IMG/VR virus record: IMGVR_UViG_3300047550_006186
Strand: one strand, 5' to 3'
Origin: a virus
DNA length: 64,000 nucleotides
Below the pieces are notes generated by a model. The model was not told the origin of the DNA and did not search any database. It saw nothing but the letters and a program-made list of their open reading frames with translations. Below are positions 8,126 to 39,331 of this stretch, in pieces. The translations under genes were made by a program, and so were the position numbers. Position 1 is the stretch's first letter. Each line of letters begins with the position of its first letter.

Positions 8126-9925
8126 ATGATTGAACTGAATGACCCCACTGTAATTGCACATACTGACTCACAAGCATTGAACGTTTTGTTGGCAAAAATC
8201 CAAAGACCCATTCCTGATGAATCCAAATATTTGGAACGACTGGAGCAAGAGCTCAAAATAATAGATGAACAAAACTTCAGTCCACATTTTTTGAGAGTGT
8301 TGGAAGTTTTGGACCTTACCAAAGACATACCACACATCACTAGAGGCAGTGCAGGCAGTTCACTTGTTTGTTATCTACTAGGCATAACAGATGTTGATCC
8401 AGTCAAATATGACATTCCATTGGCTAGATTTTTGAACCCCCTGCGTGATGATTTGCCCGACATTGACATAGATTTTGGTCAAAAATTTCACAAAGAAGTA
8501 TTGGAACGTATCTATCGCCACTGGCCAGGTAGAGCTGCCCGCCTCAGCAACTACGTGAAATATCGTGAAAAAAGTGCCCAAAAAGAAGCATTGAAGAGAG
8601 TGTGTGGCATCAAGGGCAAAGCTGCCAACCAACACAAGCCAGAACACCTAGTGCCCAAACACAAACACAAGGAATGGAAAAATTTATCAGAAAGGTTGTT
8701 GGGCAAAAAGAAATGTATCAGCAAGCATCCTGGCGGTGTGATTGTTTTTGACCAACCGCCTGCCAAAAGTTTGTTGTTACAAAAAGACACCCAAATCTTG
8801 CTGGACAAATATGAGTGTGAAGATCTTGCGCATTTGAAAATCGACGTGCTCAGCAACAGAGGATTGAGTGTGCTGTGGGATTGTAGTGGTCAAGGTCCGT
8901 TTGAATACAACCATGAATGCGATCAGACCCTTGCCATGCTGGCAGCAGGCAACAGTTTTGGGATCATCCAAGGAGAATCTCCCGTGATGCGGCGAACACT
9001 TCGCGCTCTCAAACCTCAAACGGTGGATGATCTCACACTTGCCACAGCATTGATTCGTCCTGCTGCCTTGACTGGTAGACAAAAGGGTGTGTTTTTTAGA
9101 GAATGGATTGGACACAATAAACAGCCTGGTGCCCTCAAACACAAGGATGGATTGGTATTTGATGAAGATGCAATTGATTTGATCTGCAAGGTATTGGATG
9201 TGGATGAGTTTGAGGCTGACATGTATCGCCGCGGATTCGTCAAGAAAAATGAAGAGATGATGTTTCAATTTTTGGAGAAGATTGGCAACCATCCACGTAG
9301 AGAAGAGATAATGTATCTGCTCAAAAACATGGATGGTTTTGGACTATGCAAAGCCCACAGTGTGAATCTGGGTAGGTTGGTATATGCTCAAGCTTGGGAA
9401 AAACAGCACAATCCTCAAAAGTTTTGGTTGGCTGCTCTACAAAACGCATGCAGCATGTATAGACCCTGGGTGCATATTGAACACGCAAAATCAGCTGGCT
9501 GGCAAATACAGGGCAAGAAACGACCCTGGCTGGTCAAAAACAACATATTATACAATGAAAATTGGCAAGTTCCTTTGTTTGACAGCCATTGGGATCAATT
9601 GGCACACATGGGATTTTGGACACACAAGTCTTGGATACCAGGCACCTATTATCAACAAATGGGCACCACAGCAGCATTTTGTGGAATAATTGCTGCACAC
9701 AGAATTTATCATTGTGGCCAAGGAGAGTTTGTTACTTTTGCCACATTGGGCACAGGTGCTGGTGAATTTTTGGAAGTTGTTTTGCCAGGTATGATCAATG
9801 TCAAAAATACAGCTTTTGTGGAAGGCATGGGAGAAGTGGAAGTCAAAAACAACAACACTGTTATATATACTAGAACATTTGAAACATTGTCCACAAGAGA
9901 ACATGCTAAGCACCACGACAAGTGA
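8126..9925 (+). CDS. dnaE: Minimal DnaE-like (C-family) DNA polymerase catalytic core, lacking PHP and C-terminal accessory domains
   Basis: Matches Pol III alpha palm/fingers motifs: RGSAGSSLVCYLLGITDVDP (DnaE [20 protein letters not shown]), ARFLNPLRDDLPDIDIDF (ERFLNPERVSMPDFDVDF), KHPGGVIV, LKIDVLSNRGLSVL, DGFGLCKAHSVNLG; only 599 aa. Confidence 0.7.
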   Translation: MIELNDPTVIAHTDSQALNVLLAKIQRPIPDESKYLERLEQELKIIDEQNFSPHFLRVLEVLDLTKDIPHITRGSAGSSLVCYLLGITDVDPVKYDIPLARFLNPLRDDLPDIDIDFGQKFHKEVLERIYRHWPGRAARLSNYVKYREKSAQKEALKRVCGIKGKAANQHKPEHLVPKHKHKEWKNLSERLLGKKKCISKHPGGVIVFDQPPAKSLLLQKDTQILLDKYECEDLAHLKIDVLSNRGLSVLWDCSGQGPFEYNHECDQTLAMLAAGNSFGIIQGESPVMRRTLRALKPQTVDDLTLATALIRPAALTGRQKGVFFREWIGHNKQPGALKHKDGLVFDEDAIDLICKVLDVDEFEADMYRRGFVKKNEEMMFQFLEKIGNHPRREEIMYLLKNMDGFGLCKAHSVNLGRLVYAQAWEKQHNPQKFWLAALQNACSMYRPWVHIEHAKSAGWQIQGKKRPWLVKNNILYNENWQVPLFDSHWDQLAHMGFWTHKSWIPGTYYQQMGTTAAFCGIIAAHRIYHCGQGEFVTFATLGTGAGEFLEVVLPGMINVKNTAFVEGMGEVEVKNNNTVIYTRTFETLSTREHAKHHDK

Positions 9926-11883: not shown

Positions 11884-12282
11884 ATGCAAATGAAGTTTCG
11901 CAACAAGATGCTGGCTCTTCCCATCCTGGCCCTTCTGGGTCTGGCAGGGTGCGATCGCACGGACGCTGACGTGGCCAGCTACAACATCAGCAAGGCGGCT
12001 GACAACTTCGAGATCAACCGCCGCATCGTGTTCATCAATACCTTCACCAACGACTACGTGCTGGTGATCGAGGGTCTGTGCAGCCTGGGCAACAGTGACA
12101 CCAACCTGCGCATGAGCGTGACCTGCAAGACCGGCCCCAGCACCTTCAAGAAGCATCACCTGGGCCTGGGTGCCAACGTGACCTTCGTGAGCGAGCAGTT
12201 GGATGCGGCCAAGGCCAGCACCTACCACTACCGCGTGGTGTTCAAGCCCAGCACGCTCATGCCCAACATCGAGATCCGATAA
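11884..12282 (+). CDS. Lipoprotein (high-GC, probable xenolog)
   Basis: Signal peptide + lipobox LLGLAGC; about 60% GC versus about 43% flanks. Confidence 0.55.
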   Translation: MQMKFRNKMLALPILALLGLAGCDRTDADVASYNISKAADNFEINRRIVFINTFTNDYVLVIEGLCSLGNSDTNLRMSVTCKTGPSTFKKHHLGLGANVTFVSEQLDAAKASTYHYRVVFKPSTLMPNIEIR

Positions 12283-19347: not shown

Positions 19348-20718
19348 GTGATCAAAGGCTATGCCAAATATACCGCAGACTTCACTCCACCCACATTACC
19401 TATTGTGCCACAAACAGGCAGTGTGTTCCTCTTGCCGGTGATGACTGCTGGAGGAGCATTTGATGATGTTATTGGCTACAAATCGGCAATAGTTTCCAAC
19501 ACTCCCACCTACAGTGAGGATAACCCTTTTAGTTGGCCCACACAAACATTTACAGTGTTTGCATATGGTGGTGGCAACATTGCCTTGAATAGCCCATATG
19601 TGACTGATCCTCGACTGGGGTTGAAAGTGAGCGACACACAGGGATGGAACGACTATGTCTACAGCCTGGATATTCCTCAACATTTGACTTTCTACAGCAC
19701 TGTTCCACCACGAGACCCAGGTGAATTGTATACCATTCAAGAAGAAACCAACCCCTTGACTATAAGCATCAACTATGGAGGTAGCGGAGGTGGTGTTTCA
19801 CTCATTGAAGGCAGGCTCAGTCAATATCCTGCAACCATAGCACTCTTGGCAGTGAGAGCAGGCTGGACCTATCAAGATCCCAATGGGGGCACAGGCACCA
19901 TCACCAACAACGCCTATGTGAGTGACGGCAGCATTTTCCTTGTGGTGCCCGATGCCATACTGGGCACATGGACATTCACTCCTCCAGCCTATGGTGGTAG
20001 CCTGTTCTTTGATGCTGGTGACCACATCAGCTATGGCAACAGCATTGACTGGGCCATGGATGTGGATGCCATTGAAACCAACAACCTCAGCTTGAACTTG
20101 GACGCCAACAACAGCAACAGCTATCCTGGCACAGGCAGCACCTGGTATGATCTGAGTGTGGGTAACTTCTCCTTCAACTTGGTGGGATCGCCCTACTATT
20201 CAGCTGGAGCACACGCTAGCCTAGACTTCAATGGTACATCCCAGTATGCAACAGGACCAGCAGTAAACATGTTGCCAGGCAGTGCCTACAGCAAGATGAT
20301 TTGGTTCAAATTGGATGACATATTGGCAGATAACAATTTAGTCAGTAGCGACGCTGGTGGGCACTATATGTATTTTGCAGGTGGCAATAGGCTGTGGGCT
20401 GGACATTCAAATGTCCAGCCCTATTCAGGTCCAGGTGCATTTGGTTCTGTGGCTACATTTAGTCCCAACACCTGGTATTGCGTGACAGTCACCTATAGTG
20501 AAGCCAATGGCATCACTCTCTATATTAACGGTATCTTAGATAACAATGCACCCATGATTGCACACACCGGCAATGGCAGCACCAACTTGGCCTGCTTTGC
20601 AAGCGGCGGTAATTTGTTGAATGGCAAGATTGGGCGAGTTTTGTGTTATACTGCAGAACTTACTGCTCAACAAGTGCAACAGAACTTCAATGCTACTAGA
20701 AATCGTTATGGCATATGA
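19348..20718 (+). CDS. Concanavalin A-like lectin / LamG-domain protein (possible virion or fibre protein)
   Basis: LamG-like C-terminal pattern TWYCVTVTY...ITLYINGILDN...GKIGRVLCY; N- and G-rich. Confidence 0.5.
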   Translation: MIKGYAKYTADFTPPTLPIVPQTGSVFLLPVMTAGGAFDDVIGYKSAIVSNTPTYSEDNPFSWPTQTFTVFAYGGGNIALNSPYVTDPRLGLKVSDTQGWNDYVYSLDIPQHLTFYSTVPPRDPGELYTIQEETNPLTISINYGGSGGGVSLIEGRLSQYPATIALLAVRAGWTYQDPNGGTGTITNNAYVSDGSIFLVVPDAILGTWTFTPPAYGGSLFFDAGDHISYGNSIDWAMDVDAIETNNLSLNLDANNSNSYPGTGSTWYDLSVGNFSFNLVGSPYYSAGAHASLDFNGTSQYATGPAVNMLPGSAYSKMIWFKLDDILADNNLVSSDAGGHYMYFAGGNRLWAGHSNVQPYSGPGAFGSVATFSPNTWYCVTVTYSEANGITLYINGILDNNAPMIAHTGNGSTNLACFASGGNLLNGKIGRVLCYTAELTAQQVQQNFNATRNRYGI

Positions 20719-20751
20719 TTGGGGGAACAACATTAATAGTGTTCAAAAAAT

Positions 20752-21510
20752 ATGAGAGAGATCAACAAACACAATACAACCTTGTTTTTGATGCAAGTGC
20801 TTGCACATGGTGTGCTGCTGAGCATGCTAGTTTGGGCCAGTTGGCCACTTTGGTTTTTCACCTGCATAGGTTACTTCCTTCTGAGTTGTGTGGGTACTAG
20901 TATTGGTTATCACAGGCTATTTGCCCATGGAAGCTTCCAATCACCCAAATGGTTTGAACAATCCTGCTTGCATCTGGGCAACATGGCATTAGTGGGCAGC
21001 AGCATCAGCTGGACGGCCAGCCACAGAGCGCATCATCACCACTCGGATCAAAGCCCAGCAGACACCCACAGTCCACACCACCATCCCTGGTATCGCATAA
21101 TCCTGTTGGCCATGTTTCAACCCGTAAGCATGCGATATGTGAAAGATCTAGCACGCAACCATGATCATGTTTGGTGGCACAAAAATTATTTTCTAGTTCA
21201 TGGTGCGGTGTGGGGTCTAGGATTGCTTCTGGCACCACAATTCACGGCAGCATTTGTCATTGCACCACAAGCACTAACCTGGATTACGGGTGCCAGCTTG
21301 AACTGGGTGAACCACAAATGGGGCTATAGCAATCACAACACATGCGATCACAGTACCAACAATTGGTTCTACGCATTGGTATTTTGGGGAGAAGGCTGGC
21401 ACAACAACCATCACCACAATCCCAAACGATCCTATTTTGGTGAGCGTTGGTGGGAGATTGACGTTTCTGGCATGATTATCCGAATGATTGAAAAAAAGAA
21501 GTTGACTTAA
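20752..21510 (+). CDS. Delta-9 acyl-lipid/fatty-acid desaturase
   Basis: Three His boxes HRLFAH, HRAHHHHSD, EGWHNNHHHNP; 4 TM architecture. Confidence 0.7.
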   Translation: MREINKHNTTLFLMQVLAHGVLLSMLVWASWPLWFFTCIGYFLLSCVGTSIGYHRLFAHGSFQSPKWFEQSCLHLGNMALVGSSISWTASHRAHHHHSDQSPADTHSPHHHPWYRIILLAMFQPVSMRYVKDLARNHDHVWWHKNYFLVHGAVWGLGLLLAPQFTAAFVIAPQALTWITGASLNWVNHKWGYSNHNTCDHSTNNWFYALVFWGEGWHNNHHHNPKRSYFGERWWEIDVSGMIIRMIEKKKLT

Positions 21511-21587
21511 CAGCAACTGATCTTATATATAGGCATATGCAACAGGGATAGACCCTACCGCAGCCCAACAAGCAAAGGATTTTTGCT

Positions 21588-22652
21588 ATGAACAAAGAAT
21601 ACGATTTTCTGGTCTTCATTGGGCGGATGCAGCCACCCACTGTGGCACACTGCTCCATTATCGAGCAAGCTCTCCTAAAATCAAACAAAGTGATAGTGGT
21701 GCTGGGAAGCTGCAATAGTGCTCGCACCCTTCGCAACCCTTTCACATATGATGAGCGAGTTCTCATGCTGCGACGGTGCATGACCAACTCACAAAACGAA
21801 CAGATTATCACAGTGCCCATGGACGACTACACCTACAACGATGAAATGTGGGTGGTCAAGTTGCATGAGACTGTGAACCGTGCAATTTTGGAAAACATTC
21901 CTGGCAATTCACAATATTGCTATAACAACGGTATGATCAACCAGCGTGTGGGCCTGATTGGCCACGCCAAGGACAACACCAGCTACTACCTCAACCTGTT
22001 TCCTGAATGGGGCAGCGAGAACGTGCGCAATATTCCAGGAGTTGATGCCACCAGCCTGCGTGATGCATTTTTTGCACAAGGCATGCAGAGTGTGAACGAC
22101 ACGCTGGTGCGGCCTGGTGTGCGTGAATTTCTGGAGGATTTCATCCAGACCCTTGCTTACATCAACCTGCGCGAAGAGCGTGAATTTGTGGCCAAGTACA
22201 AGAAAGCCTGGGAAGCTGCGCCCTACCCGCCCACGTTCGTCACGGTTGATGCTGTGGTGGTGCAGAGCGGCCACGTGCTGTTGGTCAAGCGGGGAGCCAA
22301 TCCTGGCAAGGGGATGTGGGCCATGCCTGGTGGGTTCCTGGATCCCCTGGAGACCCTGGAACAGGGTGCCATGCGAGAGCTGCGGGAAGAGACCAAGCTC
22401 AAGGTGCCCGAACCTGTGCTGCGTGGCAGCATTGTGGCGCGGGAAACATATGATCATCCGCACCGCAGCAGCCGTGGCCGCACCATCACCACAGCATTTT
22501 TGATCCACCTCAAGCCTGCTGCCAAGTTGCCCAAGGTCAAGGGCAGTGATGATGCAGCAGAGGCTGATTGGGTCAGAATTGCTGACCTGGACCCGCACAC
22601 CTTGTTTGAAGACCACTACCATGTGATCATGAATTTGGTACGCAGGATCTAA
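21588..22652 (+). CDS. natV: Bifunctional NMN adenylyltransferase / Nudix ADP-ribose pyrophosphatase (NatV/NadM-Nudix)
   Basis: N-terminal nucleotidyltransferase (VFIGRMQPPTVAHCSII) + Nudix box GGFLDPLETLEQGAMRELREETKL. Confidence 0.8.
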   Translation: MNKEYDFLVFIGRMQPPTVAHCSIIEQALLKSNKVIVVLGSCNSARTLRNPFTYDERVLMLRRCMTNSQNEQIITVPMDDYTYNDEMWVVKLHETVNRAILENIPGNSQYCYNNGMINQRVGLIGHAKDNTSYYLNLFPEWGSENVRNIPGVDATSLRDAFFAQGMQSVNDTLVRPGVREFLEDFIQTLAYINLREEREFVAKYKKAWEAAPYPPTFVTVDAVVVQSGHVLLVKRGANPGKGMWAMPGGFLDPLETLEQGAMRELREETKLKVPEPVLRGSIVARETYDHPHRSSRGRTITTAFLIHLKPAAKLPKVKGSDDAAEADWVRIADLDPHTLFEDHYHVIMNLVRRI

Positions 22653-22790
22653 AAAATATCCCCTGTGCTGGGGATAAAAAACCACTTTACAAGCAATTTT
22701 TTTGGTGTTATTGTGGTAACATAAAGCACATGGACTAACAGCCTAGGATAGACCAGGGCTGAAACAACAACTGCAAAGGAGTTTTGCACC

Positions 22791-24206
22791 GTGGATAATG
22801 CTAACATTCTACTAACTGCCATGTCACTCAGGGCAGACAGTTACAAGTATTCTCACCATAATCAGTTACCTCCTGGTACAACCACCATCAACAGTTACAT
22901 TGAAAGCCGCGGTGGCAAGTTTGCCAACAGTGTGTTTTTTGGCCTGCAGGCCTGGATCAAGAGCTACCTGCTGCGACCGCTCACCAAGGCAGACATTGAT
23001 CTCACAGAAGAGATTGTGCTGGCTCATGGCGAGCCCTTCAACCGCGAAGGTTTTGATCGCATCATCAACGTGCATGGTGGCCATTGGCCAGTTGTGATCG
23101 AAGCTGTGCCTGAGGGCACTGTTCTGCCAGTTCGCAATGTGCTGGTGCAGATCCGCAACACGGATCCCACGATGCCCTGGGTAACCAGTTTCCTGGAAAC
23201 TGCTCTGCTGCGTGGTATTTGGTATCCCACCACAGTGGCCAGTCTCAGCTGGCATTGCAAGCAGATGATCCTGGATGCTTTGCGCAAGAGCAGCGAGGAT
23301 GCTCTAGGTCAGATCAACTTCAAGCTGCATGATTTTGGTGCACGAGGAGTCAGCAGCGGTGAAAGTGCTGCCCTGGGTGGCATGGCCCACCTGGTGAATT
23401 TCATGGGCACAGACACTGTGGAAGCTCTGGTGGCTGCCCGCATGCTGTATGGCGCTCAGATGGCAGGGTTTAGTATTCCTGCTATGGAACACAGTACTGT
23501 TACCAGCTGGGGTAGAGAGAACGAGGCATCAGCCTATGAAAACATGGTACGCAATTATGCTCGTCCAGGCAGTTTGGTGGCATGTGTGAGTGACAGCTAT
23601 GACATCTGGAACGCTGTCAGTAATATTTGGGGTGGAAATCTCAAGAGTCTGGTAGAAAACAGTGGTGCTACAATTGTTATTCGTCCCGACAGTGGTGACC
23701 CTCTCACTGTGCCTGTTCGTGTAGTTGAGAAGCTGGGTGAAAAGTTTGGCTTTACTATCAACAACAAGGGGTTTAAGGTTCTACCCAATTGTGTAAGGGT
23801 GATCCAGGGAGACGGTATTACAATTGACAGCATTCCAGTCATTCTCAAGAATCTACTGGATGCAGGATGGAGTGCTGATAACCTTGCCATGGGTATGGGT
23901 GGTGGACTTCTGCAAATGGTCAATCGAGACACAATGAAGTGGGCTATGAAGGCCAATGCCATGGAAATCAATGGAACTTGGAAGGATGTGTTCAAGGATC
24001 CAATTGATGACCCGGGAAAGACTAGCAAGAAGGGGGTGCTCAGTCTGGTCCGAAGCAATGGTATTGGCAGCAGCACATGGATTACCAAGCGGCGTGATGA
24101 GATGGCTATGGGTGAACAGGATCTTCTTGTGCCAGTGTTCAAAAATGGTGAGCTGCTGGTAGACGTAACCTTTGATCAGGTACGTGCCAACAGTCACCGA
24201 GGGTGA
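22791..24206 (+). CDS. nadV: Nicotinamide phosphoribosyltransferase (NAMPT/NadV)
   Basis: GTG start after AAGGAG SD; DSYKYSH motif and NAPRTase-family length (471 aa). Confidence 0.85.
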   Translation: MDNANILLTAMSLRADSYKYSHHNQLPPGTTTINSYIESRGGKFANSVFFGLQAWIKSYLLRPLTKADIDLTEEIVLAHGEPFNREGFDRIINVHGGHWPVVIEAVPEGTVLPVRNVLVQIRNTDPTMPWVTSFLETALLRGIWYPTTVASLSWHCKQMILDALRKSSEDALGQINFKLHDFGARGVSSGESAALGGMAHLVNFMGTDTVEALVAARMLYGAQMAGFSIPAMEHSTVTSWGRENEASAYENMVRNYARPGSLVACVSDSYDIWNAVSNIWGGNLKSLVENSGATIVIRPDSGDPLTVPVRVVEKLGEKFGFTINNKGFKVLPNCVRVIQGDGITIDSIPVILKNLLDAGWSADNLAMGMGGGLLQMVNRDTMKWAMKANAMEINGTWKDVFKDPIDDPGKTSKKGVLSLVRSNGIGSSTWITKRRDEMAMGEQDLLVPVFKNGELLVDVTFDQVRANSHRG

Positions 24207-24218
24207 TTTTTGATCAGG

Positions 24219-24250
24219 TCAAACCGCAGTCTACTGTAGACTGCGGTTTT
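24219..24250 (+). terminator. Rho-independent terminator after nadV
   Basis: aaccgcagtcta-ctg-tagactgcggtt then ttctgtg. Confidence 0.6.
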
Positions 24251-24395
24251 CTGTGACAATTATTGAGTGCATTAAACCTTTTCTTTTAGAATATCAAGTG
24301 TTTTTTGTTTGACACAAGCATGAGTTATATGCATTCTAAGAGTGCTACATTTGAGAGATAAATTATCTCTCAAATGTAGTTCGAAGGACATACTC

Positions 24396-24953
24396 ATGCA
24401 ATCACGATTTCAATCTTGGCACGAGCTAAGAGATTTAATTGCTCAGCGTAGTCTGATCAAAAATCAGAATTTCAAGCTCAGTAGTGGTTTAGATAGCAAT
24501 TATTTCTTTAACATGAAAATGACCATGTTAAATCCACAAGGTATTAATTGGATCACTGATGCTATCTTGGATATATTAGAAGGTTTACAATTCTCAAGCG
24601 TGGGTGGCATGGCAGTAGGTAGTGTGCCAATCACATCTAGTATTACTACCAAAAGTTTGTTTCGAGACAAATATTATCCATCTTTTTTTGTTAGAAAAGA
24701 AATTAAAGATCATGGGTTTCAAACCAAGATTGATGGTTACTGTGATCCAAATACAAAAGTGGTATTGATAGAAGATGTCACCACAACTGGTAAAAGCATT
24801 CTTCATGCAGTCAACGCTGTTGAACAAATTGGATGCACAGTTGATACGGTGATCACAGTTGTAGACAGGTTGGAAGGGGCAAGCTTAAATCTTTCCTCTA
24901 GAGGTATTAATTTGATTCCATTGTATATAAAAACAGATTTTGAACATGCATGA
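24396..24953 (+). CDS. Type I phosphoribosyltransferase (orotate PRTase-like)
   Basis: OPRT-like FKLSSGLDSNYFFN and PRPP-binding VVLIEDVTTTGKSI; AAGGA SD. Confidence 0.6.
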   Translation: MQSRFQSWHELRDLIAQRSLIKNQNFKLSSGLDSNYFFNMKMTMLNPQGINWITDAILDILEGLQFSSVGGMAVGSVPITSSITTKSLFRDKYYPSFFVRKEIKDHGFQTKIDGYCDPNTKVVLIEDVTTTGKSILHAVNAVEQIGCTVDTVITVVDRLEGASLNLSSRGINLIPLYIKTDFEHA

Positions 24954-25003: not shown

Positions 25004-25581
25004 GTGAACTACCACGCCCTAAAGGTCTGTGGCTTCCTGCTTAATCGTAGTGGCTGACATCTCACCCCAATGAGTGAGAATATCTGTCATCACATCCACA
25101 GGCGCTTGGGGCAGTTCCTGCCCTGCATGATCTATTGTCCATTGTTGATGTCCCCAGTTGCGGATGTTCACTGCTGCATTCGTGTCCCTGTGCTGAGTGA
25201 TTCCACATTCATCGCAATGATATTCTCTTTGCTTGAGATCCATGTGACTTTTGCGGGTGCCACATGCACTACAGGTCTTGCTACTGGGTAGCCACTGATT
25301 GATCTTGACAAGATAGTGGCCTTGCATTTGGCATTTGTAGGCCAATGCACCAATCAACATAGCCCAACTGGCATCAGCTATGCACTTGGCTGCGGGCTTG
25401 CTTTTTCTTTTCATCTCATCAATTTTCAGTGTTTCAACTGACACCAGGTCATGTGATTTGGCTATTCTCGCACTTGTCTGATCCTATAGCGATATCGCTG
25501 TTTTATAAATCTATTTGTATAATCTATTCAAAAAGCCGCTATCCATCCAGGGGCTAAAGCACCCTGGCTTTCCGCGGCGGG
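25004..25581 (-). mobile_element. Internally deleted (about 580 bp) copy of IS200/IS605-family element A
   Basis: RE (gtgaactaccacgccctaaagg...), 3' 430 bp of tnpB and LE (ccgctatccatccagg...ttccgcggcggg) with junction tctgat|cctatagcgatatcgctg. Confidence 0.6.
25019..25444 (-). pseudogene. tnpB: TnpB C-terminal fragment (141 aa)
   Basis: About 90% identical to C-terminus of TnpB copies at 39727 and 50182 (zinc-finger CSACGTRKSH...CDECG). Confidence 0.6.
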
Positions 25582-25595
25582 AGATAAGTAATTGT

Positions 25596-26114
25596 ATGAC
25601 CACACTGAAAGAGTTGACTTGGGAGAGTCATCAAAAAGCTGAGCAAACTGAGATCATGCAACAGTTGTTGAGCAACCAAATTACCAACAGGATGTATTGC
25701 AATTTGGTGTATACAAAATATCTTGTGTTTGCACAATTGGAAAACAGGATAGATTTTGTTACACCATGCTTGCATAGAGCACAAGCTGCCTTGAATGATT
25801 GGCAACAAATGCAATGCAGTTTGCCCAAATGTGTTCCCAGCTTGGAAACATATTTGGAATTGTTGCGAAAATTGGACAGTCATTTTGTATGGGCACATGT
25901 GTACGTGCATTATCTAGCCCCTTTGTATGGAGGACAGATCATCAAAAAGGTTATTCAACACAGATTTCCCACCAGCATGTATGAGTTTGATGACCCTATG
26001 AATGCAATAGCAGAAGTAAGATCAAAGGTGAATTTGGAGATGGCTGAGCAAGCCAATCTGGCATTTGATTATACTACAACATTTTTAAATGAACTTTATC
26101 TTGAGGAAAACTGA
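25596..26114 (+). CDS. ho1: Heme oxygenase
   Basis: LKELTWESHQKAEQTEIMQQL (proximal His helix) and HVYVHYLAPLYGGQIIKKVIQ ([21 protein letters not shown] in HO-1). Confidence 0.75.
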   Translation: MTTLKELTWESHQKAEQTEIMQQLLSNQITNRMYCNLVYTKYLVFAQLENRIDFVTPCLHRAQAALNDWQQMQCSLPKCVPSLETYLELLRKLDSHFVWAHVYVHYLAPLYGGQIIKKVIQHRFPTSMYEFDDPMNAIAEVRSKVNLEMAEQANLAFDYTTTFLNELYLEEN

Positions 26115-26743
26115 TGACTAATTTTATCCAGCTTGTAGACAAAACTGGTCACGCCTTTGAGCAAGTGATCCGCCAACACACCACCTATTTGCAATGCATT
26201 CCCACAGAGGATTTTGGTTGGACAAACTATAGATGGAGCAGCAGACAGTTTAGATTGGCACATGTGGAAAAATTCCAACAACCCAAGTTCAGTGTGTTGC
26301 ACATGGTGATATTTCCGCACGTTTACGATCCCAATCCTATTTTTGGATTTGATATTATTGCCAGCGACACAAAAGCCACAGGTGTATTTTTTGATCTTAG
26401 TCCCACTGTGGGACCAAGCTGCCAATTGTCTACTCAAACATGGCAAGATCCTAGAAATCGACCAGAATGGGGAGATATTTTCAGTGATTATTGGATAGCA
26501 TGTAGACCCTCCTTGGATGAAGCCCAACAAATCTGTAATTTGGCTGTGGACACATTACACCAATATCTGATTGATCTGAGTACAACTGCCAGCAGTTCCA
26601 AGATCAGAGATATAATTCAAGCACAAAATAGATACAGTCTACAACAGCGCAAAAATGAACACACTACCCGTGTGATCCTAAAACTTTTGGGAGAACAAAA
26701 AGGCCAACATTTTATTGAAAACATCCTGTTTCCCACCATTTGA
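26114..26743 (+). CDS. Ferredoxin-dependent bilin reductase (PebS/PcyA/PcyX family)
   Basis: FDBR family segment KFSVLHMVIFPHVYDPNPIFGFDIIASDTKATGVFFDLSP; ATGA overlap with ho1. Confidence 0.7.
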   Translation: MTNFIQLVDKTGHAFEQVIRQHTTYLQCIPTEDFGWTNYRWSSRQFRLAHVEKFQQPKFSVLHMVIFPHVYDPNPIFGFDIIASDTKATGVFFDLSPTVGPSCQLSTQTWQDPRNRPEWGDIFSDYWIACRPSLDEAQQICNLAVDTLHQYLIDLSTTASSSKIRDIIQAQNRYSLQQRKNEHTTRVILKLLGEQKGQHFIENILFPTI

Positions 26744-26986
26744 CACACTTGTCAACTATTGGCACAGGGCGGGGCTGGGATTTGGATACAGATGACCTTT
26801 TGTCTATTTGTGAGAGGTATTGGTGACATGCATTGCACATGCCCCATTCTTCCCCAGGGAACATATTAAAATTCCTGAGATGCAACAAGTGTGGGACAGC
26901 AGTTAAATGTTGCTGCCAGAAATCTGGCCTACTGCAGAGTGACATAATGCTTGTAATATGACAAAAACAGTTTATATTAGCCCTAC

Positions 26987-28411
26987 ATGCACGGAGTACC
27001 AGAAATGAAAAATGTCAACAAAACACATACTAAATCAGTGGACAGGGACGTTGCAAAGATCTACTTGCAGGAAGTGAGTCAAAACAAACTGCTCACTCAT
27101 GCACAAGAAATTGAACTCAGTCAGCAAATTGAAAATGCCAAACAGAATTTGATAGGTGTATTGTTTGCTATTCCCATGTGTGTGAAATATTTTAATCAAC
27201 AGATCATGTTGATTCTCAATGGCACAAGTGATGATTGTGTGGCATTTGATTGGGAAACAGTCAACAGTCAAAGCTTGATGCAAGAGATCACACATTTACA
27301 TGACATAATTGAATTGTATATGCAAAACAATTGTGTGGATTTGAATGCCAGGTTGCAAATTGGTGAAAAAATCAGCCAACTGCCTCTCAAGCTGGCATTT
27401 TTTGATATTGCCAGCAAGCCATTGCTGGACAAAGGCAGCAAATTGAGCCAAGTGCAGGGAGAATTCATGCGATTTGCTGCCAAACATAATATTAGCCGAC
27501 AGGTGTTTTTGGACAATCATTTGGAGCGTGTGCCTTGTTCCACATGGCAATCTTTTGTTGCCACACATGAATGTGTGGTGAAAAACTATCAACAACAAAT
27601 TACAGCCATTTGTGAACCCACTGGTTTGACTGTCAGTGAATTGACCACTGCGCTGGAAAAAATCAGGCAGTGGCAGAAAATCAAAGACAATAGTGTGGAA
27701 ACCATGCTCAAAAGCAACCTACGTTTGGTGGTAAGTGTGGCCAAAAAATATATCAGTGTGAGCAACACTCCCATGTTGGATCTTGTGCAAGAAGGCAATA
27801 TGGGACTGCTCAAGGCTATTGAAAAATACAATTGGAGACTGGGTTATAGATTCAGCACATATGCAACTTGGTGGATCAAGCAATGTGTACTCAAAGCCCT
27901 AAATGAACAACATCGTATCATTCGTGTGCCCAGTCACATGACACAACTGGTCAAAAGAGTGGGCAGAGCACAGGAAGAATTTTTAGCTTCGCATGGTTAT
28001 GAAGCTGGTATAGACGATCTAGCACAAATATTGGAAGTGGACTGTGAACAAATCCGCAAAGTATACACAGTTGCCCAGGGCACCATCAGCTTGGAAACAC
28101 CTATTGGTCAGGAAGAAGATCAGAACCTAGGCAGTGTGTTGGAAGATGTGGATCATGTTAACGCTTTTGACCTATTGGCACATGTGGATGCTCAAGAAAA
28201 CATGAGCAAAATATTGGCTCTACTCACTCCCAAAGAAGAGCGTGTGATTCGCATGCGATTTGGTATTGGCCTGGATAAAGAAAGCACTTTGGAAGACATC
28301 GGCACTGTGATGGGTGTCACACGAGAACGTATTAGGCAAATTGAACTCAAAGCTTTGCAAAAGCTCAAAAGCCCTGAATTTGCCGATAAAATTCAACAGG
28401 CCTGGCAGTGA
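26987..28411 (+). CDS. Sigma-70 family (group 1/2-like) RNA polymerase sigma factor
   Basis: Region 1.2 (AKIYLQEVSQNKLLTHAQEIEL), region 2 (NLRLVVSVAKKYISVSNTPMLDLVQEGNMGLLKAIEKYNWRLGYRFSTYATWWIKQ), region 3 (IRVPSHMTQLVKRV), region 4.2 (LEDIGTVMGVTRERIRQIELKALQKL); likely start ATG 27005 after GGAG. Confidence 0.85.
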   Translation: MHGVPEMKNVNKTHTKSVDRDVAKIYLQEVSQNKLLTHAQEIELSQQIENAKQNLIGVLFAIPMCVKYFNQQIMLILNGTSDDCVAFDWETVNSQSLMQEITHLHDIIELYMQNNCVDLNARLQIGEKISQLPLKLAFFDIASKPLLDKGSKLSQVQGEFMRFAAKHNISRQVFLDNHLERVPCSTWQSFVATHECVVKNYQQQITAICEPTGLTVSELTTALEKIRQWQKIKDNSVETMLKSNLRLVVSVAKKYISVSNTPMLDLVQEGNMGLLKAIEKYNWRLGYRFSTYATWWIKQCVLKALNEQHRIIRVPSHMTQLVKRVGRAQEEFLASHGYEAGIDDLAQILEVDCEQIRKVYTVAQGTISLETPIGQEEDQNLGSVLEDVDHVNAFDLLAHVDAQENMSKILALLTPKEERVIRMRFGIGLDKESTLEDIGTVMGVTRERIRQIELKALQKLKSPEFADKIQQAWQ

Positions 28412-30438: not shown

Positions 30439-31044
30439 ATGAACATTTGTGCATTGGCATTGGTGTTACTGCTGGATGTAAGCAGCAGTGTGACTCCCGA
30501 ACGTTATGCTTTACAAAAACAGGGGTTGTTGACAAGCTTTCAAGATCCCAGCATACAAAGATTGATGCTCAGTCAAAATCCTGGAGGCATGGCTGTGACA
30601 GTTTTTGAATGGAGCACAGGAGCACAACAGGTAATCCCCTGGCATCACATTCAAACTCCAACTGATGTGGAGAAATTTGTTGAGCAGATCAACAATTTAG
30701 ATAGAGCCCAAGTTGATGGAGTCACAGCCATAGGCGTGGCACTGGAAGCAGGTATTGCCAGCTTGGAACAAGCACCATGTGTGCCTGAAAGAAAAATACT
30801 GGATGTGAGTGGAGATGGTGCCAACAACAGCGGCATTGATCCATCGCACTTGCGAGACCAGGCCCAAACTCAAGGCATAACGATAAATGGTTTGCCAATT
30901 TTGAATCCAAATGAACCTGACCTTGAAATTCATTATAGGAAACAGGTTGTCACCATGGATGGTTTTGTGATAGCCAGCGAAGGGTTTGAAGATTTTGCTA
31001 GAGCATTGCGACGCAAACTCATACTGGAAATAGCTGGGCAATAA
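30439..31044 (+). CDS. DUF1194 / vWA-like domain protein
   Basis: LALVLLLDVSSSV (MIDAS-like DxSxS) and DVSGDGANNSG. Confidence 0.55.
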   Translation: MNICALALVLLLDVSSSVTPERYALQKQGLLTSFQDPSIQRLMLSQNPGGMAVTVFEWSTGAQQVIPWHHIQTPTDVEKFVEQINNLDRAQVDGVTAIGVALEAGIASLEQAPCVPERKILDVSGDGANNSGIDPSHLRDQAQTQGITINGLPILNPNEPDLEIHYRKQVVTMDGFVIASEGFEDFARALRRKLILEIAGQ

Positions 31045-31711: not shown

Positions 31712-32941
31712 ATGAGCAAGCTCTTATTAGAAATGGGTGATCACTATGTAAGTGATTTCATTAAGAATGATAGTGAAGGTGAAGGTCGCAAGAAATATAG
31801 TCTAGACTTGTACCAAGACGAAAAATATGGCGCAGTGCGTCTTCATTGTATCGCACCAGCAGATACTATGTGGGGACAGTATTGGTATCGCAGTGGTATC
31901 AATGAAAGCATGATAAAAGAATTGCAAGGCATTGTTGCAGAAGTAACATCAAGAGTTAAGACTAAAGATGGTGATATCTGGCTTGACATTGCATGTAACG
32001 ACGGCACACTATTAAAGAACGTTCCAGACAACATGATCAAGCTTGGTATTGATCCGTGTGATGACAGCTATCATGTAGAGAGTTCTAAAGTTGCAAATAA
32101 GGTTGTTCAGGACTATTTCAGCTATGATGCATGGATTAAAACTGGTTACGGTGATGCTAAAGCTAAAATCATTACTTGCATTGCGATGTTCTACGACTTA
32201 GATGATCCAGTTCCATTCGTACAAGACTTGTATAAAGTCCTTGATGACAATGGTACACTAGTTTTACAAATGAGCTATACACCATTGATGGTGAAGCAGC
32301 TTGCGTTTGACAATATCTGCCATGAACACGTTTTCTATTACGACTTGAAGAGTATAACTAGACTCTTTGCTGAGAATGGATTTATAGTTGTTGACTGTAG
32401 CCTTAACGATACCAACGGCGGAAGCTTTAGAGTGTATCTCCAAAAGGATGTTGCAGAAGTTTCTAGCTTTGCTACAGCACCTTTGCGTGACGTATGCAAT
32501 TTCAGAGTGAACAGTATTCTAGCATATGAAAGAATGGAGAACGATATCTCTGATCCAGAGACATGGAAACACTTTGGCGAAAGACTTGCTGCACTGAAGA
32601 CTCAAGTTGTTTCGTTTGTACATCAAGCCGTCAAAGAAGGCAAAACGGTCTATGGGTATGGCGCAAGCACTAAGGGCAATACATTGCTCCAGTACTTTGG
32701 CCTAGATCACAACTACATTACTGCTATTGCAGAACGTAGCCCATATAAATTCGGCATGAAGACTATTGGCACTAACATTCCAATTATCAGTGAAGAAGTA
32801 ATGCGCCTGGCAAAGCCAGACTACATGCTAGTATTGCCTTGGCACTTCATTGACGAATTCGAAAAGCGTGAACAAGAATACTTGAAGGGCGGCGGTACAT
32901 TCATTGTTCCTTGTCCTGAATTTAAATTGATCGTAGGTTAA
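31712..32941 (+). CDS. SAM-dependent C-methyltransferase (NDP-hexose C-methyltransferase-like)
   Basis: SAM motif LDIACNDGTLL plus C-methyltransferase C-terminal domain (HEHVFYY, LPWHF); low-GC island. Confidence 0.6.
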   Translation: MSKLLLEMGDHYVSDFIKNDSEGEGRKKYSLDLYQDEKYGAVRLHCIAPADTMWGQYWYRSGINESMIKELQGIVAEVTSRVKTKDGDIWLDIACNDGTLLKNVPDNMIKLGIDPCDDSYHVESSKVANKVVQDYFSYDAWIKTGYGDAKAKIITCIAMFYDLDDPVPFVQDLYKVLDDNGTLVLQMSYTPLMVKQLAFDNICHEHVFYYDLKSITRLFAENGFIVVDCSLNDTNGGSFRVYLQKDVAEVSSFATAPLRDVCNFRVNSILAYERMENDISDPETWKHFGERLAALKTQVVSFVHQAVKEGKTVYGYGASTKGNTLLQYFGLDHNYITAIAERSPYKFGMKTIGTNIPIISEEVMRLAKPDYMLVLPWHFIDEFEKREQEYLKGGGTFIVPCPEFKLIVG

Positions 32942-35377: not shown

Positions 35378-36694
35378 CTAGTACAAACAAGCAGCGATAG
35401 CATAAATCAGTATCCCGCTCTTTGTAGATGAAAATCTAGAAACAGCACTCGTTACCGAACTCAGCTGAACACGATACTTCAATTTCGCGTTTTTGATCGA
35501 GTTGTGAAAATCAACCCATGAAGTGATTTTGGTGATATCAAGCCCGTCTTTCTTCCATTGATTCAGTGGTTTGATGTCATCCAACTTCAGTGGCGGATAC
35601 ATACACAGTGATTTTTGATATTTGTAGTTGACCCTACGGGCGATTTCCCAGGCCGCGGCACAGGGGTCAGGTAGTTCCGAATGCAAGAGGTTACCAATTG
35701 TGCTCGAGTAAGCGCAGTTGACCTCGGTTACTTCAATGCCCAGTTGATCCGATAGTTTTGTGATAGTCCATTGAAATAGCTCCCTATTCCATTGGTTGTT
35801 GACCAACCTGTTGAAGTTGCGACCTTTTTTGGCATCTCTGGCACCCATTGTTAGCTGTTCGATGCCAATTTCGCTAACTCGATAATGCCTAGCCAATCGA
35901 ATGATTGCGTGAGCTATTTCCTTGGTCTCGTGATCTCGCTTGTTGTCATCAACTCTTGATTCTTTGCTCCAAGCGTAAACCTTTGATTTGACTAGATGTT
36001 CTCGTCCATCTTTGAAATCAATTATTGTGATACCAATATAATTTGGGTTTTGGTCAATGCCCATTATGCGATAGTTCAAATGGTTAAGGATTATTGGTTG
36101 TTTTTCTTGTTCGAAACTCAAATAAATTTGACCTCTCTTGAGTTGGACTTGAATTGGGATTGATCCAATATTGTTAATCAGATGCTGGATTTGTTTGCGT
36201 TGATTGCGACCAACTTGAAATGGGATTTCGACTCTTGTGTGTTTATTTGGCTTGTAGATCAAAATATCGTCAGCTAACTTACTGAAATCAAACAATCTAT
36301 TTGACTTTTGAACAGCTTCGCCTTGTAGCATCATTGGTCTGAGTCGCAGTTGGTGCCATTCGGATGTGGTGATTTTCCCACTAGATCGCTTGAAAAAATT
36401 GGCTCTGCTGCCCCACACAATTTTGGCAGATTTGCGTTGACCTGATTTGATCTGTGATTGGTGCGCTGCATATTGGGTTTGTGCATCTAGGATCGCACAT
36501 TGAGCTATCCAGGAATTCACCGAGTCTTCGTTGTTGGATTTAGGATTTGACCATCTCTCTTTGACCAGAGATCTGATTTCTTTTTGCTTCAACCCTTGGC
36601 TAGTTCGCTCGTAAGCATACCGAAATATTGCAGAGTACTGCAATTGATAGGGCAAAAGCACAATCGGCGTTGAAAGTTTGAGTGTGGTAATCAT
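35378..36694 (-). CDS. tnpB: IS607-family TnpB (OrfB)
   Basis: 438 aa; RuvC-like/zinc-finger C-terminus, IS607-type accessory protein adjacent to serine recombinase. Confidence 0.65.
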   Translation of the reverse strand: MITTLKLSTPIVLLPYQLQYSAIFRYAYERTSQGLKQKEIRSLVKERWSNPKSNNEDSVNSWIAQCAILDAQTQYAAHQSQIKSGQRKSAKIVWGSRANFFKRSSGKITTSEWHQLRLRPMMLQGEAVQKSNRLFDFSKLADDILIYKPNKHTRVEIPFQVGRNQRKQIQHLINNIGSIPIQVQLKRGQIYLSFEQEKQPIILNHLNYRIMGIDQNPNYIGITIIDFKDGREHLVKSKVYAWSKESRVDDNKRDHETKEIAHAIIRLARHYRVSEIGIEQLTMGARDAKKGRNFNRLVNNQWNRELFQWTITKLSDQLGIEVTEVNCAYSSTIGNLLHSELPDPCAAAWEIARRVNYKYQKSLCMYPPLKLDDIKPLNQWKKDGLDITKITSWVDFHNSIKNAKLKYRVQLSSVTSAVSRFSSTKSGILIYAIAACLY

Positions 36695-36707
36695 TATTGC
36701 TACTTAT

Positions 36708-37310
36708 TTATGCTTGTTCTGTAGAAACCGCATCAATTAGGCATTTTTTTGCGCTTTTTAGTACTTTGCGTCTATTGCTGTACATCTTCATTGAGAAATG
36801 ATGAATGATTGAAATTAGATCTTGTGTCAATTCAGTTTCAAACGGAGTTATCTCGGCGTCATTTATGACAACAATTTTTGTGTTATATCGATCGAATAGT
36901 CTGGTGAAATAATCAAAACCAAATCGAGTAAGTCGATCTCGATATGTCACATAGACTGTGTCTACATTACCGGACATAACTAGATCCAATAACTCATTGA
37001 ATCCTTTACGATTTTCGTTCATGCCGCTGGCTATATCACTGATCGTCTGAACTGGATATCCTTGTTTAATAACAAAGTCTTGCACCAATTGCTGTTGACT
37101 AATAAGATCAGACTCCTGTTTCTTGTCACTGACTCGAGTGTAAGCTACGTGTATCCTCGGTCCTGATGTTGATTTGATTTCTGGGTAATAGAGATAACTG
37201 CTCTTCCCGACCCTAATGAAGTCAACTGTGTTGTTAATTCGCCAGTTCCGCAAAGTCTGTTTGCTAATGGCATATTTTTTCATAAATTGGCGTGCTGTGA
37301 TATATTTCAT
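36708..37310 (-). CDS. tnpA: IS607-family serine recombinase (TnpA) with N-terminal MerR-like HTH
   Basis: MerR-like HTH (ISKQTLRNWRINN) + resolvase catalytic domain (AYTRVSDKKQ...VYVTYRDRLTRFG). Confidence 0.75.
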   Translation of the reverse strand: MKYITARQFMKKYAISKQTLRNWRINNTVDFIRVGKSSYLYYPEIKSTSGPRIHVAYTRVSDKKQESDLISQQQLVQDFVIKQGYPVQTISDIASGMNENRKGFNELLDLVMSGNVDTVYVTYRDRLTRFGFDYFTRLFDRYNTKIVVINDAEITPFETELTQDLISIIHHFSMKMYSNRRKVLKSAKKCLIDAVSTEQA

Positions 37311-37359: not shown

Positions 37360-38286
37360 ATGGAACAAGAAGGTGAATCACAAGTGGATGGAAAAAAAGA
37401 TAGAGCACTGGGAGCCTTTGTGGGCTTGGCAGTTGGTGATGCACTAGGCGCACCCGTGGAATTTAAAGAACCTGGAGAATTTTCTCCAGTCAAGGATTAT
37501 GCCTACAGCTATGTGTGGCAAATACCACCCGGCTATTGGACAGATGACACCAGCATGGCTGTGTGTTTGGCCGAAAGCATCCTACACAAGAATGATGTGC
37601 TGCCAGACGACATTTTGCAGAGGTTTGTACGCTGGTATGTTCATGGTGAGAACAGCCCTACCGGTAGATGTTTTGATATCGGCAGCACAACCAGAAGCAA
37701 TATCAAGCGTTACATTGACCAAGGAGTATATACACCTGCTCCCAACATTGCGTGGCAGAGTGGCAACGGTGGTATAATGAGATTGAGCCCCGTTGCAGTT
37801 AGATACTGGCAGGATCCAGAACTGGCTGCTGAGTTGAGCATTGTGCAAAGCCAAACAACTCATGGAAGTGATGAATGTGTCAAATGCGCCGCAGATTTGG
37901 GAAAGCTTTTGGCAAGAGCTATTCAAGGACAGCTAATTTGGCAAGAACTAGTTGATCAGCTAGGACAAATTTCTACCAACCAGATCAGCAACAGCGGGCA
38001 AGCCAGCACAACCTTGTTGGCAGCCAAATGGTGTGTGGCTACCACAAGCAATTTTGAAGATGCTGTGTGCAAAGCTGTGAATTTGGGTGGCGATGCTGAC
38101 ACAATTGGGGCTGTGACTGGCCAGATAGCTGGTGGCATTTATGGCTTGAATAGTATTCCAGAACGATGGAAACAAGGACTATATGATTATGCAAGGTTGT
38201 TGGATCTTGCTCAGAGGTTGTTTGATAAAGAATACCACAGGGGCGGGTGTTGGCTGGCTTTCCGCGGCAGCCCCCAAGACCCATGA
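37360..38286 (+). CDS. ADP-ribosylglycohydrolase (ARH/DraG family)
   Basis: GAFVGLAVGDALG, TDDTSM, GGDADTIGAVTGQIAGGIYG. Confidence 0.8.
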   Translation: MEQEGESQVDGKKDRALGAFVGLAVGDALGAPVEFKEPGEFSPVKDYAYSYVWQIPPGYWTDDTSMAVCLAESILHKNDVLPDDILQRFVRWYVHGENSPTGRCFDIGSTTRSNIKRYIDQGVYTPAPNIAWQSGNGGIMRLSPVAVRYWQDPELAAELSIVQSQTTHGSDECVKCAADLGKLLARAIQGQLIWQELVDQLGQISTNQISNSGQASTTLLAAKWCVATTSNFEDAVCKAVNLGGDADTIGAVTGQIAGGIYGLNSIPERWKQGLYDYARLLDLAQRLFDKEYHRGGCWLAFRGSPQDP

Positions 38287-38400
38287 TTTGCCCAGGTGGT
38301 GAAATTGATAACCACCCTGCTTGCGTCTGTAGGCCCACTAGTAGAGTCAGTGGTTTGAGGGGCCATCCAGTGGAGGTTCAAATCCTCTCGGATGCACCAA

Positions 38401-39204: not shown

Positions 39205-39331
39205 GGATCTTCCTTGAGGGTTGACTTGAGTGAACTACCACGCCCTAAAAGGATATGTCTTCAACAAAAAGTCTACCATAAATATTTAGGAGATACACTC
39301 CCACATCAATGTTATCAATAGGTTAGCGCAA

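Follow-up and report, generated by a model that had tools for sequence, protein, structure and literature searches.

A 64,000-nucleotide stretch of viral DNA, IMG/VR record IMGVR_UViG_3300047550_006186 (the window, at its full length, in what follows), raises the question of how a phage that encodes enzymes for making nicotinamide adenine dinucleotide (NAD+) organizes and controls them. A first reading, made from the sequence alone, had grouped two neighboring genes, natV and nadV, with an adjacent phosphoribosyltransferase (PRTase) gene and a more distant ADP-ribosylglycohydrolase (ARH) gene, and had proposed that together they counter host defenses that act through NAD+ and ADP-ribose. All four genes are present at the positions that it gave, and the frameshifts that it had named as a possible objection are not found: each open reading frame (ORF) is intact within the 64 kb, and the sole correction concerns the start codon of the PRTase. 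The gene pair was to be expected, and the new part of the locus is a leader RNA that the two genes share. We consider it likely that the window holds a nicotinamide salvage pair of a large phage, with a leader from the bacterial NAD regulon on both genes, and that the PRTase and the ARH stand outside this core pair.

Adjacent natV and nadV genes match the NARP2 pathway

NatV combines an N-terminal CTP_transf_like domain with a C-terminal NUDIX domain (Pfam). It scores 455 bits against NF003786, the NCBIfam model of bifunctional nicotinamide mononucleotide (NMN) adenylyltransferase (NMNAT)/Nudix proteins (cutoff 397), and aligns over its full length with Synechocystis slr0787 (PDB 2QJO, E = 3e-83) and Francisella NadM. 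Its C-terminal domain has an intact Nudix box (G-x5-E-x7-REL-x-EE), and identity is 34% to NatV of phage KVP40 and 46% to the homologue in roseophage DSS3P8. NadV consists of NAMPT_N and NAPRTase domains, scores 604 bits against NF006629 (cutoff 405) and aligns end to end with solved nicotinamide phosphoribosyltransferases (NAMPTs), both bacterial (7YQO, E = 3e-153) and human (about 4e-114). It is 44% identical to KVP40 NadV and 59% to the DSS3P8 homologue. The three phage proteins have in common the NAMPT motifs DSYK.SH, HDFGARG, GTDT, EHST, VSDSYD, RPDSGDP, QGDG, GMGGGLLQ and NRDT, which line the NAMPT active site, as mapped to the residue numbers of the human enzyme.

The definition of NARP2 calls for two proteins, a Nampt-clade enzyme and a bifunctional Nmnat, in a phage without Adps, and 94% of Nampt-clade phages have such an Nmnat partner (bioRxiv 10.1101/2024.02.11.579819). 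In KVP40, NadV makes NMN from phosphoribosyl pyrophosphate (PRPP) and nicotinamide, and the pathway overcomes several NAD+-depleting systems; it also overproduces NAD+ and drains PRPP even when no defense system is present (bioRxiv 10.1101/2024.02.11.579819). In the window, natV and nadV are adjacent, and none of the window ORFs that were scanned matched Pribosyl_synth or any PRPP-synthetase-like (Adps) protein. The pairing is also conserved elsewhere: in 42 of 48 IMG/VR loci, all of them viral loci encoding a NadV relative, a NatV homologue lies within 10 kb of NadV, usually directly upstream. Because both proteins are there and adjacent, no Adps was found and the pairing is conserved, natV and nadV can be assigned by homology to a known kind, a NARP2-type pair, with a variant motif in NatV. 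The sequence-only reading had named the same combination, and the full-length homology to the KVP40 proteins, the family motifs, the adjacency and the pairing across viral loci bear it out.

This assignment depends on NadV being a Nampt. Namat, the NARP1 enzyme that joins ADP-ribose pyrophosphate and nicotinamide, is homologous to Nampt (bioRxiv 10.1101/2024.02.11.579819), so we asked whether NadV could belong there instead. We think this very improbable. NadV is closer to KVP40 Nampt and to the bacterial and human NAMPTs than to the homologues of Felix-O1-like, Staphylococcus, Vi1-like and T5-group phages, to which it is 25-33% identical, a placement made by similarity ranking and without a tree. 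It is also partnered with an Nmnat, as Nampt-clade phages mostly are, and the scanned ORFs lack the Adps that a NARP1 pathway has.

The window pair resembles KVP40 NARP2 in its two components, in their domain architecture, in being phage-encoded and in the lack of a visible Adps. It differs in sequence, with only the 44% (NadV) and 34% (NatV) identity noted above, and in layout, since the KVP40 genes are 44 kb apart. It also differs in the adenylyltransferase motif, which reads HNGH in KVP40 NatV and TxAH here, and in its leaders: KVP40 has no GGAUAGACC leader, whereas both window genes have one. The second close parallel is bacterial NadV-NadM salvage II (the Synechocystis slr0787, Francisella and Xanthomonas types), which supplies the closest solved structures (2QJO, 2QJT, 7YQO), has the same order of nadM then nadV and, in many proteobacterial loci, the same leader RNA. 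Unlike that system, the window pair is phage-borne, its NatV belongs to a TxAH clade and no NrtR repressor gene adjoins it. The window thereby adds a large uncultured phage lineage to the carriers of NARP2, which is useful but expected.

By homology, NadV would convert nicotinamide and PRPP to NMN, the adenylyltransferase domain of NatV would turn NMN and ATP into NAD+, and its Nudix domain would split ADP-ribose into AMP and ribose-5-phosphate. Where SIR2, TIR or SEFIR effectors have split the NAD+ of an infected cell, the pair would rebuild it in the manner of KVP40 NARP2. That it would do so in answer to host immunity is an analogy drawn from the KVP40 experiments only. The pair might instead be a general metabolic helper that raises NAD+ for replication with or without host immunity, as the KVP40 genes were originally read, and have no dedicated part in counter-defense; we hold this possible, though on the doubtful side. 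Genes and leader alike are the usual nadM/nadV salvage set of bacteria, the surrounding island is metabolic (it includes desaturase, PyrE, heme oxygenase and bilin reductase genes), and NARP2 makes its excess of NAD+ without any defense system (bioRxiv 10.1101/2024.02.11.579819), but the same pathway does overcome several NAD+-depleting systems. The two roles are compatible, and nothing in the sequence separates them.

Both genes begin behind variants of one leader RNA

Each of the two genes is preceded by a leader of about 50 nt, and the two leaders are variants of one element (Table 1). The first of its four parts is a stem of variable sequence that closes GG-AUAGA-CC (invariant GGAUAGACC). 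About 15-20 nt of G-poor linker separate this stem from a second hairpin, GCAAA/UUUGC, whose loop contains the Shine-Dalgarno sequence as GGAU or GGAG, and the fourth part, the start codon, lies 1-3 nt beyond that hairpin. At natV, hairpin 1 occupies 21544-21556 (AGGG-AUAGA-CCCU) and hairpin 2 occupies 21571-21587, with GGAUU in the loop and the AUG at 21588. At nadV, hairpin 1 spans 22739-22761 around GG-AUAGA-CC, hairpin 2 spans 22772-22788 with GGAGU in the loop, and the GUG start follows at 22791. Minimum-free-energy folds yield both hairpins for both leaders. The unpaired conserved core is only about 5-9 nt, and inspection of the leaders by eye found no consistent pseudoknot pairing from loop to downstream sequence.

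Within the window, the element is confined to these two places. Exact matches to GGATAGACC in the 64 kb number two, one at each leader, and the same two sites are the only exact matches to GCAAAGGANTTTTGC. We built a covariance model, R1, from 22 phage leaders; its E-values are rough, as the calibration was shortened. With filters off, R1 found just these two sites in the window, the next-best match reaching 12 bits. The leader is thus not a general 5' element of phage genes, an idea that we rejected because the window has two copies only and the flanking genes in 1.15 Mb of phage loci have none.

A sigma-70-like promoter lies upstream of the natV leader. It fails the strict -10 rule of our promoter scan; sites resembling TTGAC(A/T)-N17-18-TATAA are found 5-16 nt 5' of the leader in about half of the phage relatives. 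In our reading, natV and nadV are separate expression units. A terminator-like hairpin 3' of nadV has a fold energy of -23.2 kcal/mol (z = -3.9).

The leader recurs in unrelated phages and in several bacterial classes

On related huge-phage contigs, and in the cultured roseophage DSS3P8, the leader precedes natV and nadV with differing stem sequences. R1 gave 51 matches in the 1.15 Mb of phage loci, nearly all ending at a natV or nadV start codon, and it placed the leader 5' of both genes in the cultured Synechococcus phage B23. It gave no match in KVP40, phiM12, Moby, CcrBL10 or a Mesorhizobium phage. Bacteria have the element as well: 80 nadM loci from Gamma-, Beta- and Alphaproteobacteria and Campylobacterota gave 77 matches at E up to 5. 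These lie 5' of nadM and 5' of nadV, and so stand between cistrons. In Azospirillum, the leader precedes the gene for glutamine-dependent NAD synthetase (NadE; 30.6 bits), and in three bacterial loci it also precedes an SPFH-domain gene downstream of nadV. Matches are always on the sense strand, with the end of the motif at the start codon.

The base pairs are kept while their sequences change. In the seed alignment (A2), 86% of cells pair, against 58% in shuffles, and the covariation score is 0.68 against 0.19. In a larger alignment of 61 phage and bacterial matches (A5), 90% of cells pair, compensatory changes occur in 12 of 12 pairs, and the covariation score is 0.80, compared with 0.21 in shuffles and at most 0.17 when the partners are slid; the counts from both alignments are partly biased, since pairing was a reason for choosing some of the hairpin-1 seeds and A5 had been fitted to the model. 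Covariation of the pairs, together with the fixed position and strand, identifies the leader as a structured cis-regulatory RNA.

Some related forms fall outside R1. Two-hairpin variants with AGAGA, AGUGA, AGGGA, ACAGA or AAAGA pentaloops stand 5' of natV or nadV in IMG/VR loci L018-L061, and their nadV copies are often flanked by GUCC...GGCA. These variants were found by regular expression and inspection, and MAFFT gave no structural register for the AGAGA and AGUGA loops. Weak R1 matches at L044:536, L045:7430 and L017:12554 lie inside genes or 5' of tiny ORFs, and we treated them as noise.

The leader as a candidate regulator of NAD genes

No Rfam 15 family matched the 121-nt leader region even at E = 10, nor did any match the bacterial and phage examples, and full-text searches turned up no description of the leader in the literature. 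It may be an unrecognized regulatory RNA of the NAD pathway. Among known NAD controls, the operators of NrtR deserve comparison, since they too control nadM, nadV, nadE and nadA; they are 21-bp DNA palindromes with a GT-N7-AC core (PMC2330246). In the leader, by contrast, the arms vary and covary, the asymmetric center is fixed, the element always lies on the sense strand and its distance to the start codon is fixed. This is how an RNA behaves, and a DNA operator of NrtR was rejected on the further ground that the arms differ within one genome while GGATAGACC and the asymmetric center stay the same. Bacterial nadM/nadV operons are often preceded by a divergent NrtR-like gene, and in at least 9 of the 80 bacterial loci such a gene lies beside nadM.

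The other precedents are the NAD+-I (nadA motif) and NAD+-II (pnuC motif) riboswitches. Both are cis-acting RNAs 5' of genes for NAD biosynthesis or uptake, and NAD+-II acts at the ribosome-binding site. The leader differs from them in consisting of two small hairpins with no internal-loop aptamer and no Rfam match, and in its far wider spread, which takes in several proteobacterial classes, Campylobacterota and phages. For a cofactor as central as NAD+, it has been puzzling that the known riboswitches are rare and taxonomically narrow. A compact element that precedes nadM, nadV and nadE in several bacterial classes, and that unrelated phages have kept, would partly fill this gap.

The leader would act on the translation of each cistron, as it ends at the start codon, has the Shine-Dalgarno sequence in a hairpin loop and is repeated inside bacterial operons. 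Because the genes behind it are all NAD-synthesis genes, it would tie their expression to the status of the NAD pathway. We infer that the phage acquired the genes together with a control element of the bacterial NAD regulon, which would adjust translation of both enzymes and make a costly pathway conditional. If the leader derepressed on loss of NAD+ or on accumulation of ADP-ribose, the NAD+ and PRPP cost of NARP2 would be removed; regulation of this kind would explain how phages limit the cost in PRPP and ATP noted in the original study. Whatever its mechanism, the leader can serve as a simple marker in sequence searches of genomes and viromes for NAD-regulon genes.

The sensor could be the RNA itself or a protein. 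Tentatively, the leader may represent a new and widespread class of NAD riboswitch that senses NAD+, NMN or ADP-ribose and that, in many Proteobacteria and Campylobacterota, controls whether nadM, nadV and nadE are translated; phages would have captured it along with the genes, so that the pathway is on only when immunity depletes NAD+. The alternative, to which we give a substantial chance but somewhat short of an even one, is that the leader serves as the operator of a conserved RNA-binding protein, or as a processing or stability element, and senses no metabolite. The conserved unpaired core is small for an aptamer, which calls for caution about a self-contained sensor, and intercistronic positions such as those of the bacterial leaders commonly hold protein operators or processing sites. 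On the other side, very different phages (a roseophage, a cyanophage and huge phages) and several bacterial classes have kept the element, a breadth that a self-contained sensor fits better than reliance on one host protein. Nor, apart from the DNA-binding NrtR, did the neighborhoods of the loci show a conserved candidate for a binding protein. Persistence of the leader in unrelated phages and bacterial classes favors a sensor within the RNA.

Several points weigh against the joint reading of salvage pair, bacterial leader and outlying genes. The literal HxGH motif of NMNATs is not found in NatV. KVP40, the one tested NARP2, has no leader, so the leader is not required for the pathway, and the counter-defense role itself rests on that single system. 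The R1 match 5' of quinolinate synthase (NadA) is weak, at 15 bits. The tests of specificity for NAD genes covered no more than the window, a 41-kb stretch of KVP40 and nadM/nadV flanks of 3-10 kb, and the covariation counts carry the bias described above. Lastly, an Adps (NARP1) or other NAD genes may lie beyond the visible 64 kb of a genome that is probably larger than 400 kb.

A variant motif in NatV is fixed in its clade

The HxGH position of NatV reads T-V-A-H (residues 18-21, in the context GRMQPPTVAH). Such a replacement could mean that the adenylyltransferase is inactive, so that the Nudix half alone works and the pathway ends at NMN. We examined the motif across homologues. GR(L/M)QPPTxAH is fixed in the 43 closest cluster representatives, which are 54-99% identical to NatV, and in this TxAH clade every other NMNAT signature residue is invariant. 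Remoter homologues have FHxGH, FHIAH or FTIAH, and intermediates of the HxAH and TxAH types occur in other NadM clades. Nor is constraint on the domain relaxed: the ratio of identity in the N-domain to that in the C-domain is 0.87 in the TxAH clade, against 0.71 in canonical relatives. A threonine at the first motif position is also found in active members of the superfamily such as PPAT (TxGH).

Neither a compensated frameshift nor an assembly error explains the motif, since 43 independent relatives share the change. TxAH is not damage either, being fixed in these relatives with the other signature residues invariant and conservation of the adenylyltransferase domain not reduced. Loss of adenylyltransferase activity thus seems to us unlikely; the pattern of conservation indicates that the domain is under selection and probably active. 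So far, the TxAH clade has been seen only on phage-like contigs, and one of its members is encoded on a phage contig of 459 kb.

The PRTase is a neighbor of the pair and probably not a component

The ORF listed for the PRTase runs from a GTG at 24342 to 24953. Homologues have 180-186 aa, and a 99%-identical protein has 185 aa, so the true start is the ATG at 24396. The protein scores 139 bits against TIGR00336 pyrE (cutoff 106.8), and its best PDB matches are the orotate phosphoribosyltransferases (OPRTs) 2P1Z and 5HKF (Mycobacterium tuberculosis OPRT). Aligned with these, it keeps the catalytic loop VRKEIKDHG, the PRPP motif VVLIEDVTTTG and the VDR arginine. Its closest relatives, at 65-69% identity, are in uncultured huge phages, and a scan of viral contigs with the PRTase alone returned no relatives. 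Cyanophages P-SSM2 and P-SSM7 have a pyrE auxiliary metabolic gene whose product is a phage-borne OPRT homologue 30-32% identical to the window protein; the latter differs in being of the short OPRT type and in having its closest kin in uncultured huge phages.

The sequence-only reading had set this enzyme beside the module and suggested that it could supply or use PRPP. As a working third member, it could run in reverse to yield PRPP or accept a pyridine base. The PRTase and NadV both use PRPP, and in several members of the phage family the PRTase gene lies within about 3 kb of natV/nadV, in a shuffled order (natV-nadV-x-PRT, natV-x-PRT-x-nadV or PRT-x-nadV). Against this, none of the 48 IMG/VR loci has a PRTase homologue within 10 kb of NadV, and the gene is missing from the sister cluster on the 459-kb contig (L013); in DSS3P8 and KVP40 it is not near the NAD genes. 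It scores above the PyrE cutoff with the catalytic-loop residues of an OPRT, R1 found no leader 5' of it anywhere in the window, and it stands behind the terminator-like hairpin with a promoter-like site of its own.

Membership in the module is therefore improbable and is not supported. That all 48 other viral NadV loci lack the PRTase, as does one sister huge phage, argues that it is not a NARP2 component, and proximity within the family reflects shared ancestry, because the synteny also takes in the heme oxygenase and the sigma factor. From its similarity to PyrE, we read it as a gene of nucleotide metabolism, transcribed separately from the NAD genes with which it shares a metabolic island. 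Just 5' of its start is a perfect inverted repeat that is unique in the window. This repeat was not found upstream of the relatives' PRTase genes and could be an operator, an RNA hairpin or the scar of a mobile element.

The ARH is a separate, conserved gene of the phage family

The ARH scores 219 bits against PF03747 (cutoff 26), and its metal-binding motifs GDALG, WTDDTS and GGDADT are conserved relative to 2CWC (Thermus ARH) and 6DRE (Serratia Tri1). The DraG/Tri1 ADP-ribosyl(arginine) hydrolases share its fold family and metal-binding motifs and provide its best NCBIfam and PDB matches. It nevertheless differs from them, in scoring far below both equivalog cutoffs (Tri1, 238 against 490; DraG, 159 against 337) and in having no partner ADP-ribosyltransferase nearby; ORF scans found no such transferase in the window.

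Homologues 62-64% identical to the ARH occur on the same 420-460 kb phage contigs as TxAH NatV, and in a sister phage the gene adjoins an OMP-like gene, as it does in the window. With homologues on these contigs and a neighbor kept, the ARH is a stable gene of this phage family. It lies 13 kb from natV/nadV in the window and 27 kb from natV in one sister phage, and R1 found no NAD leader at the gene in its search of the whole window. Its link to the pair is thematic, and we regard it as a separate conserved gene outside the core pair.

Bacteria offer a hint of a closer tie. Among the 80 bacterial nadM loci, an ARH homologue 38-40% identical to the window protein directly follows nadM in one and nadV in another (L088 and L120), and nrtR-draG loci were noted by Rodionov et al. 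(PMC2330246). These operons lend weak support, by gene arrangement, to a functional tie between ARH and ADP-ribose/NAD metabolism. Bacterial operons with nadM/nadV and an ARH or NrtR-like gene are at L088:417-2467, L120:843-4487 and L072:1532-2683. Phage enzymes that erase ADP-ribose as a counter-defense have been described for the NADAR family (PMC11825919). For the ARH family, we know of no phage ADP-ribose eraser that acts in counter-defense.

A tRNA-Leu gene (38323-38399) stands immediately 3' of the ARH. Beyond it, 38401-39706 encodes a non-specific endonuclease with a signal peptide (- strand) and then an Smr-domain protein.

Table 1. Features of the NAD locus and nearby genes, with positions counted along the window
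Feature	Position	Strand	Basis and remarks
Sigma-70-like promoter, natV	21502..21531	+	TTGACT, 17-18 nt, TATATA; read directly from the sequence
natV leader RNA motif	21541..21590	+	R1, 45.5 bits, E = 2.6e-8 (rough); whole window, filters off
natV (NadM type), NMN adenylyltransferase and Nudix ADP-ribose pyrophosphatase	21588..22652	+	354 aa, ATG start; profile and structure-database matches
nadV leader RNA motif	22741..22791	+	R1, 44.8 bits, E = 3.8e-8 (rough)
nadV, Nampt-type nicotinamide phosphoribosyltransferase	22791..24206	+	471 aa, GTG start; profile and structure-database matches
Terminator-like element 3' of nadV	24221..24255	+	Hairpin with 13-bp stem, then UUUUCUGUG; U-rich tail
Promoter-like site, PRTase	24263..24292	+	TTGAGT, 18 nt, TAGAAT; consensus match only
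Perfect inverted repeat just 5' of PRTase start	24345..24379	+	16-nt arms; fold z = -5.8
PyrE-like orotate phosphoribosyltransferase, short (actinobacterial/archaeal) type	24396..24953	+	185 aa; profile, motifs and homologue lengths
Truncated TnpB	25019..25444	-	C-terminal ~140 aa of the 397-aa copies at 39727-40920 and 50182-51375
ADP-ribosylglycohydrolase, ARH/DraG/Tri1 superfamily	37360..38286	+	PF03747, E = 1e-64

The window is a piece of a large uncultured phage

That this DNA comes from a phage is clear from its genes, among them those for rIIA, ClpP, a GH19 lysin, a holin-like protein, a sigma-70 factor and part of DNA polymerase III alpha; spanin-type genes are also among the neighbors, which places the pair on a phage genome. 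It also carries four tRNAs and several TnpB/IS607 insertions. Its gene order recurs on related metagenomic phage-like contigs, the largest of 459 kb, in the common sequence ClpP, lysis genes, natV, nadV, heme oxygenase, bilin reductase and sigma factor. The nearest relatives of individual genes are in roseophages of about 147 kb (the DSS3P8 group) and in one uncultured phage of 595 kb. Megablast of 25 kb against cultured phages found no close cultured relative. We conclude that the window is a piece of a large uncultured phage whose complete genome probably exceeds 400 kb. The search returned only a chance-like 90-nt match, at 11992-12081, 84% identical to the recombination directionality factor (RDF) gene of Mycobacterium cluster phages; it may reflect chance or a conserved short domain.

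Around the NAD genes, a LamG-domain gene and a fatty-acid desaturase gene (19348-21510, +) fill the space between the lysin and natV. A 99%-identical relative, locus L015, has only a remnant of the desaturase there (L015:1900-2298), and the difference is a recent indel between near-identical phages. Directly 3' of the NAD and PyrE genes, 25515-28411 (+) encodes a heme oxygenase, a ferredoxin-dependent bilin reductase and a full-length sigma-70 factor, a block that is syntenic in all related contigs. The truncated TnpB is inserted between the PRTase and the heme oxygenase; in relatives, the heme oxygenase follows the PRTase directly. At least four TnpB genes plus this truncated copy lie on the - strand (25019-25444, 35378-37310, 39727-40920, 48676-49794 and 50182-51375), a transposon load that is dense for a phage. 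One TnpB, immediately upstream of the ARH, is paired with an IS607-type serine recombinase.

Other genes stand further from the NAD locus. An 843-aa protein encoded at 58961-61492 (+) has major-vault-protein repeat and shoulder domains and an SPFH/Band 7 domain, which is unusual in a phage; it proved unrelated to the bacterial SPFH gene that carries the leader, and a kinship between the two was rejected. A 599-aa ORF at 8126-9925 (+) matches DNA polymerase III alpha over the NTPase and finger domains only, which suggests a split or truncated polymerase. An arginase/agmatinase-family gene (2063-3052, +) and a saccharopine-dehydrogenase-like gene (56094-57500, +) may belong to polyamine metabolism. 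The window further encodes a cREC_REC domain protein (1667-2062), a DUF1194/VWA protein (30439-31044), a C-methyltransferase (31712-32941), an amidoligase-like protein (42230-43657) and a PP-loop ATPase (57716-58420).

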